Virus record (IMG/VR): IMGVR_UViG_3300042367_000066
Coordinates: 188 to 64,187 of that record
Strand: one strand, 5' to 3'
Length of the DNA stretch: 64,000 nt
Source of the DNA: a virus
Taxonomy: Duplodnaviria > Caudoviricetes
The position numbers and the translations under genes were made by a program. Below are positions 1-64,000 of the stretch, one piece after another. Numbering within the stretch: the first letter of the stretch is position 1; each line of letters starts with the position of its first letter. A model generated the notes under the pieces. That model made no database searches, was not told the DNA's origin, and saw only the letters and a list, made by a program, of their open reading frames with translations.

Positions 1-166
1 TCGTAATGTCGCAGTTGTCAAAAACATCATTACATTTTCTAATGTCATATTTTAGTTTTGCAATTGCTTTTTCTCTTGCTTCATCTAAGCTATCCGCTTC
101 AACTTCTCCATAATCAAATGAAGTCCAAATTGTTTGTGTTGAATTACTGTAAGTGTAAAGTGCCAT
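1..166 (-). CDS. Early hypothetical protein, 5' part (runs off window start)
   Basis: ATG at 166 after A-rich leader; MALYTYSNSTQTIWTSFDYGEVEADSLDEAREKAIAKL... open to position 1; not in ORF track. Confidence 0.7.
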   Translation of the reverse strand, partial: MALYTYSNSTQTIWTSFDYGEVEADSLDEAREKAIAKLKYDIRKCNDVFDNCDIT

Positions 167-272
167 AATTTCTGTTTTTTAGTTATTAATTTGTCTACAT
201 CATATTTTCCTTTATAAGCTATCTCAAGGAGGGAACGTGTCAAACCCCTCTGAAGACCGTCATAGTGTTAAC

Positions 273-467
273 CTATCTTCTAAATCCGAATGCATCTCCT
301 AGATCGTTTACATAGTACACTGCATTCGACGTGTAACTTCCATATATAGCGCCTCCCGTTGATAGTGCTACTATTAAGAAGCAGGCTCCCGCATTTTTTC
401 TAGCCTTAACTAGTTTAGTGAAGTTTTCGTTTGTAATCTCATTTGCTTTGTTGATAATTGATGTCAT
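273..467 (-). CDS. Early hypothetical protein (64 aa)
   Basis: Track ORF 273..506 re-started at ATG 467 (MTSIINKANE...), because the longer start lies inside the hammerhead core. Confidence 0.65.
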   Translation of the reverse strand: MTSIINKANEITNENFTKLVKARKNAGACFLIVALSTGGAIYGSYTSNAVYYVNDLGDAFGFRR

Positions 468-480
468 AATAAATAGTATT

Positions 481-534
481 AAACGTTTCGCCATTCTGTG
501 GCTCATCAGTAAGGATACACATCCTTATACGTTT
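481..534 (-). ncRNA. Hammerhead ribozyme, type III
   Basis: RNA: AAACG-UA-UAAGGAU(GUGU)AUCCUUA-CUGAUGA-GCCA(CAGAA)UGGC-GAAA-CGUUU; full core, three perfect stems, GUA cleavage triplet (cut between 528 and 527). Confidence 0.93.
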
Positions 535-711
535 CTAAACCAATTACAAGACTCCCACCTTGCAATCTTTATAACACCTATTCGATGCTGTTTACATTTC
601 GCTCTTCACGGCTCCTAATCCGCTTATAACACCTGTTTGTTCAGTAGAGTGGTTATGGTTACACTTAAACCTCCGTCACTTTTTAAAACTGTGATCTCGT
701 TTTCAACACTG

Positions 712-719
712 CAAACATA
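712..719 (-). promoter_or_regulatory. Bacteroidetes sigma-70 -7 element (early leftward promoter)
   Basis: TATGTTTG on - strand matches TAnnTTTG; upstream of the early gene arm. Confidence 0.7.
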
Positions 720-806: not shown

Positions 807-814
807 CAAACATA
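807..814 (-). promoter_or_regulatory. Second leftward -7 element
   Basis: TATGTTTG on - strand, 95 bp upstream of the first. Confidence 0.5.
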
Positions 815-2201: not shown

Positions 2202-3809
2202 ATGGAAGAATTTGGATACAGTCCCAAGGAACTACTGTTCGACGAGGAAGGAAGAGCAAAACTAATTACAGGCATAACTACAATTGCCAAGGCGGTTAAG
2301 AGCACGCTAGGACCAAGGGGTCGTACGGTTCTGATCGAGTCACCGAACCATACACATGGTATCACAGTTACAAAGGATGGGGTAACGGTTGCTAAGTCAA
2401 TCTTCTTGCTAGACCCAGTGGAGAACCTAGCCGTCAAGATGATGAAGGAGGCAGCAGATAGGACAGCCACCAGTGCTGGAGATGGAACCACAACAGCCAT
2501 CGTGCTTACGGAGGCAATCGTGAGACAGGGTCAGGAGCTCTTGAACGAAAAACACAACGTGACCGAGGTGATCAAGAACATCAACAGCGTTTCAAACGGT
2601 ATCATCCACAGCCTTGAGAGATCATCCAAGAAGGTGAGTGGAAAGACGCTGCACAACGTGGCATCTATCTCGGCCAACAACGACAACGAGATCGGTAAGA
2701 TCATATCAAACGCATACACGAAGGTTGGTAAGAATGGGATCGTAACGATCGAGAACTCACAGACTGCTGAGACCTACTCAGAGTTCACGAATGGGATCAA
2801 GATCGGAAGGGGTTACACCTCGAACATGTTCGTGAACGACTTCAAGAACGACGAGTGCATCATGGACGATGTGTTGGTGCTGGTTACAGACCAGGAGATA
2901 TCCAACATCCTGTCGATAGAGGGGGTTCTAAAGACGGTGATACAGGAGAACAAGAAGCTGCTCATCATAGGACCATGCAACCAGAACGTGATCAACACGC
3001 TGGCAGTCAACGTGGTGAAGAACAAGCTGAAGTTCTGTAACATTGCACCACCAGAGTTCGGTTACAAGATGAACGAGCTGATGAGCGACATCGCGCTGTC
3101 TTTGGGTGCGAAGTACTTCTCGGAGAGCACAGGAGACGACCTAAGTCTGATATCAATAGAGGATTTAGGTAGGGCAGAGAGGATCATAATAGGAAGGGAT
3201 ACTTCGTCCATCATCAAGCCAGAGAGCAAGCAGCAGGACGTAGACGACAGAGTCAGTCAGCTGTGGGTAGCTCACGAGGCTGCACAGAAGAAGCAGGACA
3301 AGGAGTTCATCAAGAGTAGGATTGCCAGCCTTACAGGTAGCATCGCTGTTATATACGTGGGAGGTAACTCTGATTTGGAGCAGAAGGAGAGAAAGGACAG
3401 GGTAGACGACGCGGTATGCGCGGTAAGGTCTGCACTAGAGGAGGGGATCCTTCCAGGAGGAGGCTTAGCCTTGTTCAACGAGTCCTACAGAATCATTGTA
3501 GACGCAGATGACATGATAGAGGACATCAGTGCGGAGCAGTACGTAGCTATGCAGATCATGGCAAGGGCTATACAGGCACCGTTGTTGCAGATCCACGAGA
3601 ACGCAGGTAACGATGGGTACGAGATCATGACTGGATGTGCATCAAACACGAACACTGGGTACGACGTTAAGAACGACGTGTACGGTAACATGTACGATAT
3701 GGGGATCATAGACCCACTGAAGGTTACGAAGAACGCGCTTAAGAACGCTGTCAGTGTGGCCACAACAATACTTAGTACTAACGCAATTATAACAATGACA
3801 CGAGCATAA
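2202..3809 (+). CDS. groEL: Phage chaperonin GroEL (Cpn60)
   Basis: STLGPRGR, VTKDGVTVAK, AGDGTTTA, EEGILPGGG, GIIDPLKV motifs; lacks C-terminal GGM tail. Confidence 0.97.
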   Translation: MEEFGYSPKELLFDEEGRAKLITGITTIAKAVKSTLGPRGRTVLIESPNHTHGITVTKDGVTVAKSIFLLDPVENLAVKMMKEAADRTATSAGDGTTTAIVLTEAIVRQGQELLNEKHNVTEVIKNINSVSNGIIHSLERSSKKVSGKTLHNVASISANNDNEIGKIISNAYTKVGKNGIVTIENSQTAETYSEFTNGIKIGRGYTSNMFVNDFKNDECIMDDVLVLVTDQEISNILSIEGVLKTVIQENKKLLIIGPCNQNVINTLAVNVVKNKLKFCNIAPPEFGYKMNELMSDIALSLGAKYFSESTGDDLSLISIEDLGRAERIIIGRDTSSIIKPESKQQDVDDRVSQLWVAHEAAQKKQDKEFIKSRIASLTGSIAVIYVGGNSDLEQKERKDRVDDAVCAVRSALEEGILPGGGLALFNESYRIIVDADDMIEDISAEQYVAMQIMARAIQAPLLQIHENAGNDGYEIMTGCASNTNTGYDVKNDVYGNMYDMGIIDPLKVTKNALKNAVSVATTILSTNAIITMTRA

Positions 3810-57522: not shown

Positions 57523-57589
57523 TGGTCAAGGGGTTGGAATCGAACCAACGACTTTCTTTCGACCCTCTAACCAATGAGGTACCCTTGAC
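57523..57589 (-). ncRNA. tRNA-like RNA with vestigial anticodon arm (67 nt)
   Basis: GUCAAGGG/CCCUUGAC acceptor, D arm CCUC-AUUGGUUA-GAGG, T arm GUUGG-UUCGAUU-CCAAC, ends ...GACCA; anticodon arm only UC-GAAA-GA. Confidence 0.75.
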
Positions 57590-57727
57590 TTTGTTGAGAT
57601 TGGAGCTTTGGATACCCTACTTCCCTATAAGTACTCAACTCCTTCTATGCGCTGATAGGACTTAACATTCGTGGTATGCAAACTACCCAATGTCTGTTAC
57701 TGTACTATTTGCGTCAAGTAACTGCTG

Positions 57728-57820
57728 ATCTTGTGGCAGGATTCGAACCTGCACCACCCCGTACCTGCCGAGATATTACTGATTGATTACAGTAAGTGCT
57801 AACCATTACACCACACAACA
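57728..57820 (-). tRNA. Atypical tRNA/pseudo-tRNA with 8-nt anticodon loop and long variable arm
   Basis: D arm GUGU-AAUGGUUA-GCAC; UUACUG-UAAUCAAU-CAGUAA; variable UAUCUCG/CGGGGUG; T arm GCAGG-UUCGAAU-CCUGC; acceptor has a G:G mismatch; identity unassignable. Confidence 0.65.
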
Positions 57821-60956: not shown

Positions 60957-61248
60957 GTAGTCTATGTTTTTTAGTTAGTAAGTCTGTCTCGTACGTGCTA
61001 GGCACACAACAATTTGAAGGACACACTGACGCACACTGTGGTGCACCGTAGAAGCCGACACACTCTGTGCACTTCTCCTCCACGATGTAGAACACGTCGC
61101 TTGAACGTGGTGCCTGAGGTGTATCATCCGTCAGGCTAGTGCCGTCGCTCCATCTCCAATCCGTGTCAGGCTCGTATATCGCGTTGTTCGGACACACGGG
61201 CTCACACAGTCCGCAGTTGATGCAGTCGTCTGTTATCTTTATTGCCAT
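60946..61248 (-). CDS. YfhL-family 2x[4Fe-4S] ferredoxin (host-like)
   Basis: MAIKITDDCINCGLCEPVCPNNAI...KCTECVGFY..PQCASVCP. Confidence 0.92.
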   Translation of the reverse strand: MAIKITDDCINCGLCEPVCPNNAIYEPDTDWRWSDGTSLTDDTPQAPRSSDVFYIVEEKCTECVGFYGAPQCASVCPSNCCVPSTYETDLLTKKHRLHGN

Positions 61249-61460
61249 GTCTTTATTAGTTTATTATTTACATCATATAATGATGTAAGGTTATACTCTT
61301 TATCTATTCTCTCTAAAACCTGATCTAGGTTAGCCGTCTGAAATACCATGTGGAAGTCCTGAAGGGGGATGTCTTTACCGCCCTTGCTTCTGTAGTACTT
61401 GTGGAACCACTCTATGTTATACTGCCCACTGTTACGCATTCTGATATACTCTTGTATCAT
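61239..61460 (-). CDS. Hypothetical protein
   Basis: ORF in operon. Confidence 0.6.
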   Translation of the reverse strand: MIQEYIRMRNSGQYNIEWFHKYYRSKGGKDIPLQDFHMVFQTANLDQVLERIDKEYNLTSLYDVNNKLIKTWQ

Positions 61461-61462
61461 GT

Positions 61463-61735
61463 CTAATAATTTAAGTCAGGGAAGTCGCAAGGGTCACTAC
61501 TGAATCCGCAGTCAGGACACGTTATGGTCTCGTCTGCTATTCTGTGTAGTAGTGTGCTCCCGCAGTCTCCACATGTTACTATGTTAATACCTGTCTTTTT
61601 AGCCACCTCAATCTGAAGGTCTAGTTGTGTCTCCCTTGGCTTTACTCTTATGGTCGTAGTGCCGTCTCCTACATTAACCCACTTGTCTGTGAACTTGTTG
61701 AAGAACTCTAACTCGTCTGATTTAAAATGTGTCAT
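61463..61735 (-). CDS. Zinc-ribbon protein
   Basis: INIVTCGDCG..LLH...ITCPDC...CDFPDL. Confidence 0.7.
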   Translation of the reverse strand: MTHFKSDELEFFNKFTDKWVNVGDGTTTIRVKPRETQLDLQIEVAKKTGINIVTCGDCGSTLLHRIADETITCPDCGFSSDPCDFPDLNY

Positions 61736-61740
61736 GTCTT

Positions 61741-62064
61741 TTAGTTGTTATACCAATTAATAAATTTTACTACGGCATCGTACACGTGCTCTATCTTATG
61801 CTCAAAGGATATGTCTGCACTATTATCTACAATGACCTCTCCTCCCGTTCTCCATTCGTATATCCTTGTTCCGTTGGTTAGAATGTTCACGTCTATAGAA
61901 TCAATGTGCTCAATCTTTTCTACTGCCTCTATTAAGTCATTCCAATTATTTTCGAAATCAAACTTTTTATAGATAAATTTTGTACCTGTTTTCTTTCTAT
62001 AACTATTTAATTCTTGACTGTCTAAAGTCCATCCTAAAAACTCTGCGATTAATTTATTGTTCAT
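61741..62064 (-). CDS. Hypothetical protein
   Basis: NNKLIAEF.G...W..L..AVEKIE...VY.AVV.FI.WYN. Confidence 0.7.
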   Translation of the reverse strand: MNNKLIAEFLGWTLDSQELNSYRKKTGTKFIYKKFDFENNWNDLIEAVEKIEHIDSIDVNILTNGTRIYEWRTGGEVIVDNSADISFEHKIEHVYDAVVKFINWYNN

Positions 62065-62073
62065 CTTGTTTAG

Positions 62074-62364
62074 TTATTGTGCACACAAACCCCACGCCTC
62101 TATGCGCTTGAAGTTGTGTCCGTTAATGTTTAGTTGTTTGCATATGAACCTTGCCAATATGCGGTTGCCCTTCGTGTCGTTGTCTATCTCTCGGGTGCCT
62201 ATCCTGAACACCACCTCTGACGGATCCATACCGAGCACCCTCTTGCAGAACTTTCCGTCCTGACCTAGGTAGAACCTTTGGTGGTGCTTCTTTGTCTCTA
62301 ATACCAAACACCAATCGTGACCGATGCTATATGCACCCCTACTTACTATTACCTTTGCTTTCAT
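62074..62364 (-). CDS. Hypothetical protein
   Basis: FYLGQD.KFC.RVLGM. Confidence 0.65.
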   Translation of the reverse strand: MKAKVIVSRGAYSIGHDWCLVLETKKHHQRFYLGQDGKFCKRVLGMDPSEVVFRIGTREIDNDTKGNRILARFICKQLNINGHNFKRIEAWGLCAQ

Positions 62365-62629
62365 TCTGAATTAGTTTTAAGATTAATTTCCACGCCTCTA
62401 GGTCGCGCTCTATACTATTTATTATTATGCTCATGTGACCCTCATCGTACATCTGTCTGTCGATTTGTTGTAACTCGTCCTCTAGGCTCATGACCTTGAC
62501 CATCGCCTTTATTAGTGCTCTCTCTACTACTGAATCCATGACAACTCCCTTCTCATTAGTCCAAACCTGATTGAATTCTTTACTGACTGCTTTGCTTCGT
62601 GCCATGTCAGTTGTGGGTTGTCCTTGCAC
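62339..62629 (-). CDS. Hypothetical protein (start uncertain)
   Basis: Helical C-terminal half; overlaps 62527..62715 in another frame, true start may be MDSVVE. Confidence 0.5.
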   Translation of the reverse strand: MQGQPTTDMARSKAVSKEFNQVWTNEKGVVMDSVVERALIKAMVKVMSLEDELQQIDRQMYDEGHMSIIINSIERDLEAWKLILKLIQNESKGNSK

Positions 62630-62715
62630 TCGTACTTTACAAGTGCCGTGAACTTCTGCTCACGCTCCCTGATTGACCGTATGGTCTGATTAACTAGTGT
62701 TATCCTTGGTCGCAT
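62527..62715 (-). CDS. Hypothetical protein
   Basis: ORF in operon. Confidence 0.5.
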   Translation of the reverse strand: MRPRITLVNQTIRSIREREQKFTALVKYECKDNPQLTWHEAKQSVKNSIRFGLMRRELSWIQ

Positions 62716-62924
62716 AGTCTCTCTATTAATAAGTTAGTACTGAACTCTATCTCTTCTATGGTCTGCTTGTGCTTGTCTAGGAACCACTGTGGGAACTCAA
62801 TCGCCACTAGTTCAGGACTCACATCCTTGTGCTCAAATGACGATGGCACAAAGAAGGGTTTACTTCCGTGTGCCAACGTGATTGAGTCATGACCTAACTG
62901 CCTTCTATATTTTTGTAGTATCAT
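62700..62924 (-). CDS. Hypothetical protein
   Basis: ORF in operon. Confidence 0.55.
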   Translation of the reverse strand: MILQKYRRQLGHDSITLAHGSKPFFVPSSFEHKDVSPELVAIEFPQWFLDKHKQTIEEIEFSTNLLIERLCDQG

Positions 62925-63102
62925 CTATCTCTTGAAATATTTGTTCTGTAATCCAATCACTATTCAATACTTGCTCTAGTATGTCATAAGCCTCGTCGTC
63001 TGTGCACTCGTGATATTGTTTAACATCTTTTATGTGCCAAAGGCTACCCGTACAGTAACCCGCTTCCTTAAGTATAGCCTTCGCTTGTTTTATTTTGTCC
63101 AT
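62905..63102 (-). CDS. Hypothetical protein
   Basis: AK..L..AGY...LW...DV...CTDDEA..IL. Confidence 0.65.
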   Translation of the reverse strand: MDKIKQAKAILKEAGYCTGSLWHIKDVKQYHECTDDEAYDILEQVLNSDWITEQIFQEIDDTTKI

Positions 63103-63275
63103 GATGTGATAAAGTTTTTATAGTCGTTATAAATATAAAACACCGTCTGCTCAAACGTGCAGTCAGGTTGATAGATGTTTGGAGCATACTCCTTAATGAT
63201 GGCGGTCACTTGCTCCAATGTTGGAACCTCGTCCTTGTACGTGTCAGCGATGTGCTGATAGATTGATTTCTTCAT
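63090..63275 (-). CDS. Hypothetical protein (61 aa)
   Basis: Re-started at MKKSIYQ; the longer track ORF runs through the ribozyme. Confidence 0.6.
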   Translation of the reverse strand: MKKSIYQHIADTYKDEVPTLEQVTAIIKEYAPNIYQPDCTFEQTVFYIYNDYKNFITSWTK

Positions 63276-63349
63276 AGTATTGATTTTATAATTAGTACCC
63301 ATACTGATATGCAGATTAATATTAATACTGCCCATACAATTCCTTTCAT
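63272..63349 (-). CDS. 25-aa membrane peptide
   Basis: MKGIVWAVLILICISVWVLIIKSIL; ATG just after hammerhead A; ATGA overlap with next gene. Confidence 0.55.
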   Translation of the reverse strand: MKGIVWAVLILICISVWVLIIKSIL

Positions 63350-63365
63350 AATAAATATATTTAAT

Positions 63366-63418
63366 GGTTAAGACACCCACTTGGGGTGTTTCGATCATTT
63401 AGATCTCGTCAGTTAACC
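63366..63418 (-). ncRNA. Hammerhead ribozyme, type I (A)
   Basis: GGUUAA-CUGACGA-GAUC(UAAAU)GAUC-GAAA-CACCC(CAAGU)GGGUG-UC-UUAACC; cut between 63372 and 63371. Confidence 0.93.
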
Positions 63419-63604
63419 TTGGCTCTCAATCCAACGTCTAAACGCAATAGCCACGTCTCCATCACTCCAATTAACTTCGTCTGCCTTGTCGCATACATCG
63501 TCATAACAAAATTGAGTTATGTCGTCAATATTGCTTGGAATATCGATATTTATTCTATCAAATATATCGATAATTAAACCTTGAATTTCATTTTTTTTGT
63601 CCAT
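63413..63604 (-). CDS. Acidic early protein (63 aa)
   Basis: Between hammerheads B and A; its TAA lies in stem I of A. Confidence 0.7.
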   Translation of the reverse strand: MDKKNEIQGLIIDIFDRINIDIPSNIDDITQFCYDDVCDKADEVNWSDGDVAIAFRRWIESQG

Positions 63605-63622
63605 GATAAATATTTTTTAATT

Positions 63623-63677
63623 GGTTAATACACCCCGTAGTGGGGTGTTTCGGATACTTAATCCTCATCAGTTAACC
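63623..63677 (-). ncRNA. Hammerhead ribozyme, type I (B)
   Basis: GGUUAA-CUGAUGA-GGAU(UAAGU)AUCC-GAAA-CACCCC(ACUAC)GGGGUG-UA-UUAACC; compensatory changes relative to A. Confidence 0.93.
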
Positions 63678-63754
63678 TAGATTATTGATATTAAAGTTAG
63701 AAATACTGCCCATAGTACTAGGGCAAGTCCGATGTCTTTTAGGTTCTTATCCAT
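63677..63754 (-). CDS. 25-aa membrane peptide
   Basis: MDKNLKDIGLALVLWAVFLTLISII; TAG overlaps first base of hammerhead B. Confidence 0.5.
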   Translation of the reverse strand: MDKNLKDIGLALVLWAVFLTLISII

Positions 63755-63872
63755 AGATTCCAAATGTTAGGTGGGAGCACTCTCCCGTTACTAATCCTAC
63801 TACTACTCTTAAAAATCCTGCCACGAATAACGTGGTCAAAGATGCTACAAAAACTTTTTCAAATGTGTTCAT
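63747..63872 (-). CDS. 41-aa membrane peptide
   Basis: MNTFEKVFVASLTTLFVAGFLRVVVGLVTGECSHLTFGIYG; ATG just after hammerhead C. Confidence 0.55.
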   Translation of the reverse strand: MNTFEKVFVASLTTLFVAGFLRVVVGLVTGECSHLTFGIYG

Positions 63873-63888
63873 GATAAATATATTTAAT

Positions 63889-63941
63889 GGTTAAGACACC
63901 CACTTGGGGTGTTTCGATCATTTAGATCTCGTCAGTTAACC
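63889..63941 (-). ncRNA. Hammerhead ribozyme, type I (C), identical to A
   Basis: Same sequence as 63366-63418; cut between 63895 and 63894. Confidence 0.93.
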
Positions 63942-64000
63942 TTTTGTACTATTTTTTTAATTCTACTTCTGTTTGGCTATAATCCATATCAATTGTCAAT

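Follow-up and report, generated by a model that had tools for sequence, protein, structure and literature searches.

Hammerheads and tiny genes across a circular junction

The DNA analyzed here, called the window, is a stretch of 64,000 nucleotides from IMG/VR virus record IMGVR_UViG_3300042367_000066 (Caudoviricetes), whose assembly is one contig of 64,187 bases; the window is contig bases 188-64187. Contig bases 127-183 repeat window 63944-64000, and four further bases then reach window position 1; this overlap closes the genome into a circle of about 64,004 bp, with 4 bases absent from the window. Read on the minus strand, window position 1 continues, past those 4 nt, into position 64000. 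Spanning this junction, over 1,173 nt, is an array of four hammerhead ribozyme motifs and one hammerhead stump, interspersed with very small genes, all on the minus strand. An earlier interpretation of the same letters without database searches, hereafter the sequence-only reading, had described three type I hammerheads on this strand, each between a stop codon and the next AUG. All three are present, with every core position intact, but the array has four members, the additional one being a type III hammerhead at 534..481.

The type I copies, in the order in which the minus strand is read, are A (63941..63889), B (63677..63623) and C (63418..63366). The core, C3 U4 G5 A6 N7 G8 A9, G12 A13 A14, A15.1-U16.1 and H17, is exact in all four hammerheads, with H17 being C in A and C, and A in both B and the type III copy. 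With such a core, hammerhead cleavage falls after H17 and leaves a 2',3'-cyclic phosphate and a 5'-OH. Cleavage is accordingly predicted after C63895 in A, A63629 in B and C63372 in C, with new 5' ends at 63894, 63628 and 63371 and leaders to the AUG of 22, 24 and 22 nt, as the sequence-only reading had also placed them. Stems I, II and III measure 6, 4 and 6 bp in A and in C, 6, 4 and 7 bp in B, and 7, 4 and 6 bp in the type III copy, and the base pairs that border the core are intact. The minimum free energy structure is the hammerhead fold; B was folded one base short, and its stem I is therefore undrawn. A and C are identical and lie within a 70-nt perfect repeat (63874-63943 equals 63351-63420). 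Compared with this pair, B has GGAU/AUCC rather than GAUC/GAUC in stem II, a compensatory difference, and one pair more in its 7-bp stem III. Position 7 of the core, which is free, is U in B rather than C, and the cleavage nucleotide is A rather than C (GUA), all in agreement with the earlier description. The type III hammerhead (481..534), upstream of A-C across the circular junction, heads what reads as the same transcription unit. Its minimum free energy structure is likewise the hammerhead fold, its cleavage is predicted after A528, and the AUG of the first cargo gene lies 13 nt past it.

That first cargo gene (273..467, 64 aa) matches no family and has a sole homologue, at 89% nucleotide identity, in L025, one of the IMG/VR relatives described below, which are designated by L numbers. 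The last base of its UAG stop is the first G of the stump GGTTAAC (267..273), which comprises the 5' strand of a stem I followed by C3. L025 has a complete type I hammerhead where the window has the stump, and homology between the two ends right after GGTTAAC; the heptamer at 273..267 is, from this comparison, the remnant of a further type I copy. A 100-nt spacer (266..167), considered as a possible further ribozyme but with no Rfam match and no fold signal (z-score 0.34), precedes a gene of 73 aa that crosses the circular junction (5' part 1..166, 3' end 63948..64000) and stops at UAG 63950..63948, 6 nt ahead of stem I of A. Behind A and its leader (63894..63873) follow a 41-aa hydrophobic peptide gene (63747..63872), with a homologue in L025, and a 25-aa hydrophobic peptide gene (63677..63754) that overlaps the previous stop and shows 94-96% nucleotide identity in L002, L004 and L006 and 84% in L010. 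The UAG of this second gene shares one base with B, as had been noted. Behind B and its leader (63628..63605) is a 63-aa acidic cargo gene (63413..63604) that matches no family, and whose UAA stop (63415..63413) lies inside stem I of C; the sequence-only reading had recognized a UAA inside stem I and misassigned it to A. Behind C and its leader (63371..63350) is another 25-aa hydrophobic peptide gene (63272..63349), with the same start behind a hammerhead in L150. The variable cassette region stops at the first conserved backbone gene (63090..63275, 61 aa, MKKSIYQ...), which is homologous in L002, L004, L006, L010, L011 and L025. Pfam and PHROG searches on eight small proteins matched 0/8, and give no backing to the earlier designation of these products as host-takeover peptides.

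Detection and selection on RNA structure

A strict-core scanner, which requires the exact core and minimum stem lengths, finds exactly 4 matches in the 64-kb window, all on the minus strand. Across one hundred 64-kb sequences simulated by a Markov model, the scanner averaged 0.03 matches, 97 sequences having none and 3 having one; the window holds more hammerhead matches than chance provides. At the gathering threshold, Rfam reports no hammerhead in the window, and all nine hammerhead matches in relatives, from seven loci, likewise score under the Rfam cut-off, which is a curation threshold and no property of the RNA itself. Against RAGATH-1-hammerhead (RF03152), A scores 31.1 bits for a cut-off of 56.3. 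When a family covariance model, R1, was built from 56 homologues, it scored A, B and C in the window at 68.8-70.2 bits with E about 1e-14 (A, 68.8 bits, E 3e-14; B, missed by Rfam, 70.2 bits, E 1e-14), with the next unrelated match at 12.8 bits. Searches for twister, pistol, hatchet and HDV-like ribozymes in the window and seven loci returned none at E up to 1. When 61000-64000 was compared with GenBank phages by megablast, nothing matched, and blastn of B plus its leader against the same set gave six chance-level matches (E 0.06-0.2); neither search turned up the unit in a cultured phage.

Three pattern scans of IMG/VR returned 10 loci, at least 120 loci and 25 loci. The survey set consists of the window plus 127 loci among the matches listed, 128 records and 1.28 Mb in all; the loci were selected for carrying a match, and the counts below describe the family rather than its frequency. 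Altogether 212 hammerheads (197 type I, 15 type III) were found in 118 of the 128 records, with two to six copies in 56 records and never both strands of one record in use. Gaps between neighbouring hammerheads are shorter than 1 kb in 86 of 94 cases, with a median of 348 nt. In five relatives of 61-65 kb, each at least 97% complete, model R1 finds one to four type I copies within at most 1.7 kb on one strand. Sixteen loci were found solely by the type III motif; in all of them the type III copy leads the array, and 13 have one or two type I copies downstream. Clustered, co-directional, gene-flanking hammerheads with variable cargo, of which the window has four where two within a few kb would already make a cluster, recur in this set. 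The survey of relatives proposed by the sequence-only reading bore out its expectation of the same layout with swapped cargo, as at least 120 IMG/VR contigs share the units and differ in cargo. When one genome per prokaryote species was scanned, the type I pattern occurred in only seven contigs, all from metagenome-assembled genomes, four of them Bacteroidota.

The pairing in these elements can be evaluated apart from the pattern used to find them. Among 148 distinct primary-sequence matches, for which pairing was not required, 91% have a stem II of at least 4 bp and a stem III of at least 5 bp, while shuffled inserts as control gave 8.3% and 0.6%. An alignment of 56 type I sequences has 99.6% of cells paired, compared to 76.5% after shuffling and 25-41% in slid controls, and 182 cells changed on both sides, compared to 46, a value that 0 of 500 shuffles reach. 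For the 25 sequences of the type III alignment the corresponding figures are 96.2% paired versus 77.0%, and 83 double changes versus 22, again with 0 of 500 shuffles. Compensatory change is heavy in stems II and III of type I, and stem I is near-invariant, with little covariation (some in 4 of its 6 pairs). The RNA structure is under selection, in both type I and type III homologues, as the sequence-only reading had proposed from the differences between B and its neighbours.

The unit, its cargo and the surrounding genome

Among 175 unique type I copies, stem II has 4 bp in 157 and stem I has 6 bp in 168, and the cleavage nucleotide is C in 137 and A in 38. Loop II follows U-N-A-N-U, with U1 and U5 in 142/142 and A3 in 131/142, and an A stands on each side of the 6-bp stem I in 98-99% of copies. 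The constancy of loop II and of the flanking A residues shows what appears, in these alignments, to be constraint beyond the minimal hammerhead. In hammerheads a tertiary contact of loop II with stem I makes cleavage fast at cellular Mg2+; here mutual information showed no pairing partner for loop II. A pseudoknot between loop II and the flanks was considered and rejected, for mutual information was weak (best z 6.3, for one column pair) and had no pairing logic. Stem I is GGUUAA/UUAACC in 13 of the 16 type I copies from type III-ascertained loci, while stems II and III vary freely. The computed energy of the stem I duplex is -4.1 kcal/mol; those of the 3' product hairpins are -12.1 and -16.1, and those of the leaders -0.4 to -3.7 kcal/mol.

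Upstream, the ribozyme is closely integrated with the end of the preceding open reading frame (ORF). For 173 upstream ORFs, 97 stop within the ribozyme (UAA in stem I for 55, UGA in the core for 32, loop II for 10), and for 24 more a UAG overlaps the first G of the ribozyme, so that the ribozyme supplies stops in all three frames. Downstream, the leader from the predicted cut to the AUG is 18-24 nt long in 132 of 162 cases, contains 5% G, and has A at -3 in 73% and A at -11 to -13 in 72-86%. The same A signature is found at translation starts of Flavobacterium johnsoniae, whose ribosomes work without Shine-Dalgarno pairing (Baez et al. 2019, PMC6847099) and whose own leaders average 33 nt (PMC6847099). 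A Shine-Dalgarno-like tetramer occurs in 18 of 145 leaders. A sister unit, found at L008 9524..9254 and L009 6755-7025, has stem I AUCUUAA/UUAAGAU and a leader in which a Shine-Dalgarno sequence, GGAG, is clear; the design therefore extends beyond hosts without Shine-Dalgarno recognition.

The first ORFs behind hammerheads, 187 distinct sequences, have a median length of 73 aa, and 140 are no longer than 100 aa, with a few of the very short ones probably representing false starts. Close relatives share the leader upstream of the type III copy, the type III copy itself, the hammerhead-leader units, and the backbone from 63275 on; the contents between differ. L010, for example, has the 25-aa peptide, one hammerhead, and then directly the backbone gene; between these the window has, in addition, the 63-aa gene, hammerhead C and a further peptide. 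Among the loci compared, none has a homologue of the 73-aa gene with its spacer, of the 63-aa gene or of the last peptide. Homology to relatives breaks at hammerheads, and indels and replacements among close relatives are bounded by the hammerhead repeat. At the stump, GGTTAAC occurs at both ends of a 331-nt insert. At the head of the assembly, contig bases 1-183 match window 63295-63420 and 63944-64000, the flank of C running through the 70-nt repeat into the flank of A; this junction may come from a 523-bp A-to-C deletion variant, or may instead be a path of the assembler through the repeat, and contigs assembled from sequencing runs break at the 70-nt repeat and so bear neither way on such a variant. 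A contig from run X3 has 189 other letters in place of 63280-63865. Together the stump, the contig-head junction and the X3 contig point to a probable exchange of cassettes through hammerhead units.

Ahead of the type III hammerhead lies an apparently untranslated leader of about 170 nt (535..705), which has no conserved ORF, no Rfam match and a single-sequence fold z-score of 0.52. Among relatives it shows conserved blocks and compensatory changes in hairpins, in an alignment of few sequences. Homologous leaders of about 110-180 nt occur in L002, L004, L010, L011, L025, L104, L137, L138, L144, L146 and L149. These leaders are modular, and double changes preserve the pairing of their hairpins, as in one whose AAUAG loop is closed by CAUG/CAUG, CACG/CGUG or CGCG/CGCG. 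The stretch is bounded by a TAnnTTTG-GCAGTGTT box and by the type III hammerhead, whose cleavage would free it as a separate RNA. The box in the window, TATGTTTG followed by GCAGTGTT (712..719), is a putative Bacteroidota -7 promoter element, and a second copy stands at 814..807. In 19 of 26 loci, a TAnnTTTG box precedes the type III hammerhead at a distance of 118-221 nt.

Large ORFs elsewhere in the genome match a GroEL-type chaperonin, a BT4734-like/PriCT primase, DUF285 repeats and a Fib_succ_major domain. The primase is closest to those of uncultured phages and of Flavobacterium, Nonlabens, Polaribacter and Cellulophaga phages (23 records; best MW202828.1, 61% identical), and the host phylum is probably Bacteroidota. 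Sequencing runs containing the phage DNA are freshwater and lake metagenomes, with at least 90% of sampled words present in three runs; no RNA run was among those listed. Because the replication genes share the minus strand with the array and a large block on the plus strand looks structural, the label "early" for the array is a reasonable inference. Several other features of the genome lie apart from the array. The chaperonin gene (2202-3809, plus strand; Cpn60_TCP1, E 2e-61) has a counterpart in the GenBank relative MW202828.1, where groEL and a 10-kDa co-chaperonin are also present. A 94-nt tRNA-like gene (57727-57820, minus strand) scores 33.7 bits against the Rfam tRNA model and has a 35-nt insertion; ARAGORN gives no assignment and reports a four-base anticodon, atca, and the gene would be a UGA suppressor if the anticodon were read as UCA. 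A second, weak tRNA-like match lies at 57525-57589. At 988-1321, at least 8 copies of AATGTAA(A)/TTTACATT, in both orientations, sit in a gene-free region of about 1 kb that separates divergent transcription units; the repeats resemble iterons or operator sites and perhaps mark a replication origin.

Probable processing of the early RNA and its rivals

The hammerheads run in the same direction as the genes, each is placed between a stop and a start, their structure is selected, and no promoter or terminator breaks the array, where sigma-70 promoter-like and terminator-like sites occur at the level of shuffled sequence and the single -7-like box is inside a gene. The anatomy therefore fits a system of punctuation, and we consider ribozyme processing of a polycistronic early phage RNA to be the main role of these elements, with a probability of about 0.7. 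To the observed motifs, their covariation and conservation, their placement and the mosaicism of the region, this model would add a single RNA, cleavage in vivo, and an effect on the stability or translation of the mRNAs. Transcription on the minus strand would start near the TATGTTTG-GCAGTGTT box, some 170 nt ahead of the type III hammerhead, and give an early transcription unit punctuated by self-cleaving hammerheads. The type III ribozyme would cut off the conserved untranslated leader and stay on the 5' end of the first mRNA; A, B and C, each following one to three tiny genes, would each cut 22-24 nt ahead of the next AUG. Every upstream RNA would then carry both hairpins of its ribozyme, and a 2',3'-cyclic phosphate, at its 3' end, and every downstream RNA would begin with a 5'-OH on a short, unstructured, G-poor leader with A at -3 and at -11 to -13, the 6-bp stem I probably being weak enough for the products to separate. 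Because the hammerhead-leader unit of about 70 nt is the sole sequence common to otherwise unrelated cargo genes, it may double as a homology patch for the insertion, deletion and swapping of cassettes. The phage might gain from mRNAs that decay at different rates, from translation being switched on, or from keeping newly acquired genes insulated from their neighbours.

Several observations weigh against this interpretation. The Rfam search suggested by the sequence-only reading, beyond returning nothing at the gathering threshold, matched A, C and the type III copy in E-value mode at scores below the family cut-offs, 25.2 bits for A and C against Hammerhead_1 (RF00163, cut-off 34) and 43.2 bits (E 4e-6) for the type III copy against Hammerhead_3 (RF00008, cut-off 48.5), and left B unmatched; it is the strict-core scanner that all four pass. 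The nearest GenBank relative, MW202828.1 (L001), has an early region without a hammerhead, and the elements are therefore dispensable for this type of phage. The assignment of a promoter to the array is weak: the strict Bacteroidota -33/-7 pattern TTTG-N17-23-TAnnTTTG gives 3 matches in the window for 2.2 expected, none near the array, and the box that does precede the type III hammerhead has G at its fourth position, atypical for F. johnsoniae promoters. For 97 of 173 upstream ORFs, more than half, the stop codon is inside the ribozyme, which terminating ribosomes should therefore unfold, so that constitutive cleavage is not assured. By the account of a 2019 review, no published work demonstrates what a phage gains from cutting (PMC6765202).

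In Bacteroidia, whose ribosomes disregard Shine-Dalgarno sequences, cleavage might matter chiefly for translation, if exposing a 5' end some 22 nt ahead of the AUG, together with removal of the adjacent structured RNA, switches on an internal cistron that is otherwise poorly initiated. The tight distance from cut to AUG, the low G content and Bacteroidia-type A signature of the leaders, and the length of host leaders, 33 nt on average, all favor this explanation, as does a report that type I hammerheads in the 5' untranslated regions (UTRs) of RNA mycoviruses are required for translation initiation (PMC13725137). That precedent is eukaryotic and cap-independent, however; bacterial loading that depends on a 5' end is not known for leaders of this kind, and the Shine-Dalgarno-like tetramers in 18 of 145 leaders and the GGAG of L008 and L009 mean that the unit exists where Shine-Dalgarno recruitment is possible. 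Activation of translation by cleavage is possible, at odds well short of even. Somewhat more doubtful is the proposal that the units are mainly recombination linkers at the DNA level, or selfish mobile regulatory cassettes, that persist by moving cargo while RNA cleavage is incidental. Cargo that differs among close relatives around common hammerhead-leader units, the stump with GGTTAAC as a direct repeat around the 331-nt insert, the perfect A/C repeat with its deletion-type junction at the contig head, the alternative cargo in the X3 contig and an analogy to the PeSL cassettes of T4-type phages (PMC2839356, PMC4122927) all speak for it. A pure homology patch, on the other hand, would lack compensatory changes that preserve helices as the sequence drifts, and its invariant catalytic core would be unexpected; a linker role is also compatible with an RNA role rather than exclusive of it.

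Two further explanations take the constancy of stem I or the position of the stop codons as their starting point. Cleavage could be gated by translation, the ribozyme folding only when the upstream ORF is not being translated, and so could report translational status or timing. The 121 of 173 upstream ORFs that end within the ribozyme or overlap it by one base suggest such a switch, and regulated cleavage of phage hammerheads has been raised by Perreault et al. (PMC3088659), but stop codons packed against downstream elements are common in phages and the overlap may reflect no more than a portable stop in three frames; we regard this switch as unlikely. Least probable of these explanations, and in our judgment improbable, is that excised segments are ligated or circularized, either through pairing of their own UUAACC and GGUUAA ends to rebuild a hammerhead or through joining by RtcB, as in retrozymes and viroid-like RNAs. 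It is an established fact that this cleavage chemistry leaves ligatable ends, and the near-invariant GGUUAA/UUAACC stem beside freely varying stems II and III would suit the idea. Stem I, however, is just 6 bp (-4.1 kcal/mol), and DNA recombination and the stop codons that the stem provides account for its conservation as well. Perreault et al. sought spliced or circular products in their own arrays and found none (PMC3088659). A broader and doubtful proposal combines several of these elements into a portable expression adaptor for phages of Shine-Dalgarno-blind Bacteroidia. Self-cleavage would then be needed for the translation of each cassette, through the 5' end that it frees about 22 nt ahead of the AUG; the unit of about 70 nt, with stops in three frames, would serve as a recombination handle for plugging in ORFans; and the type III copy would free a conserved, structured leader RNA that acts in its own right.

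Known systems and significance

Ribozyme processing of the early RNA, the reading we prefer, has a direct precedent. Perreault et al. described in 2011 clustered hammerheads that flank single genes in prophages, and suggested that long transcripts are thereby cut into mRNAs of one gene each; cleavage was demonstrated in vitro for three of those arrays, and in E. coli cells for one (PMC3088659). The phenomenon and its interpretation are thus already published, and the punctuation idea of the sequence-only reading, which the anatomy fits, was not new. Like the published arrays, the present one has closely spaced hammerheads of mixed type, on the coding strand, that bracket single genes or short blocks of varying identity. 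It differs in belonging to a lytic-type Bacteroidota phage group known from metagenomes alone, in a fixed order with type III first and type I after, in a near-invariant, A-flanked stem I, and in the fusion of the ribozyme to a Bacteroidia-type translation start. No paper in the literature searched was found to link hammerheads to Flavobacterium, Cellulophaga or Bacteroidetes phages, although the alignments of the 2011 paper may include such sequences. The features that appear to set this variant apart are its fixed order, the stop-supplying stem I, the fusion to a Bacteroidia start, and a role at cassette boundaries. Beyond the sequence-only reading, the present analysis adds the type III head, the hammerhead stump and a shuffling of cassettes at the DNA level.

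Other systems resemble the array in part. The Rfam families RF00163, RF00008 and RF03152 have the same catalytic core and three-stem junction, and the alignments span the full models. RAGATH-1 has in addition an upstream hairpin, which is not convincingly present in the window. RNase III processing of T7 early mRNA, to which the sequence-only reading had likened the array, cuts between early genes and leaves a 3' stem-loop on each product. There the enzyme is a host protein that leaves a 5'-phosphate and a 3'-OH, whereas here the RNA is predicted to cut itself, with a 5'-OH and a 2',3'-cyclic phosphate. In the PeSL cassettes of T4-type phages a repeated motif likewise flanks small ORFan early genes and bounds indels and replacements (PMC2839356, PMC4122927), but PeSLs are promoter and terminator stem-loops, while the repeat here joins a ribozyme to a translation leader and lacks a promoter; the likeness goes no further than function. 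In RNA mycoviruses, too, a type I hammerhead of the 5' UTR stands just upstream of a viral ORF (PMC13725137). Those are eukaryotic RNA viruses with cap-independent translation and an experimental link to it, as opposed to internal cistrons of a DNA phage analyzed in silico; their translation requirement makes the translation-activation reading worth a direct test (PMC13725137).

The role of bacterial and phage hammerheads is still largely elusive (2019 review, PMC6765202). This phage group makes an unusually clean system for testing it, with its rigid layout of stop, ribozyme, leader and AUG, its fixed order, and more than 100 natural variants with swapped cargo. Routine Rfam annotation overlooks a whole subfamily of phage ribozymes. 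The host phylum has an unusual mode of translation initiation, and F. johnsoniae within it is genetically tractable and has reporter assays (PMC6847099). For the phages themselves, the ribozyme units may serve as the boundaries across which gene cassettes are exchanged.

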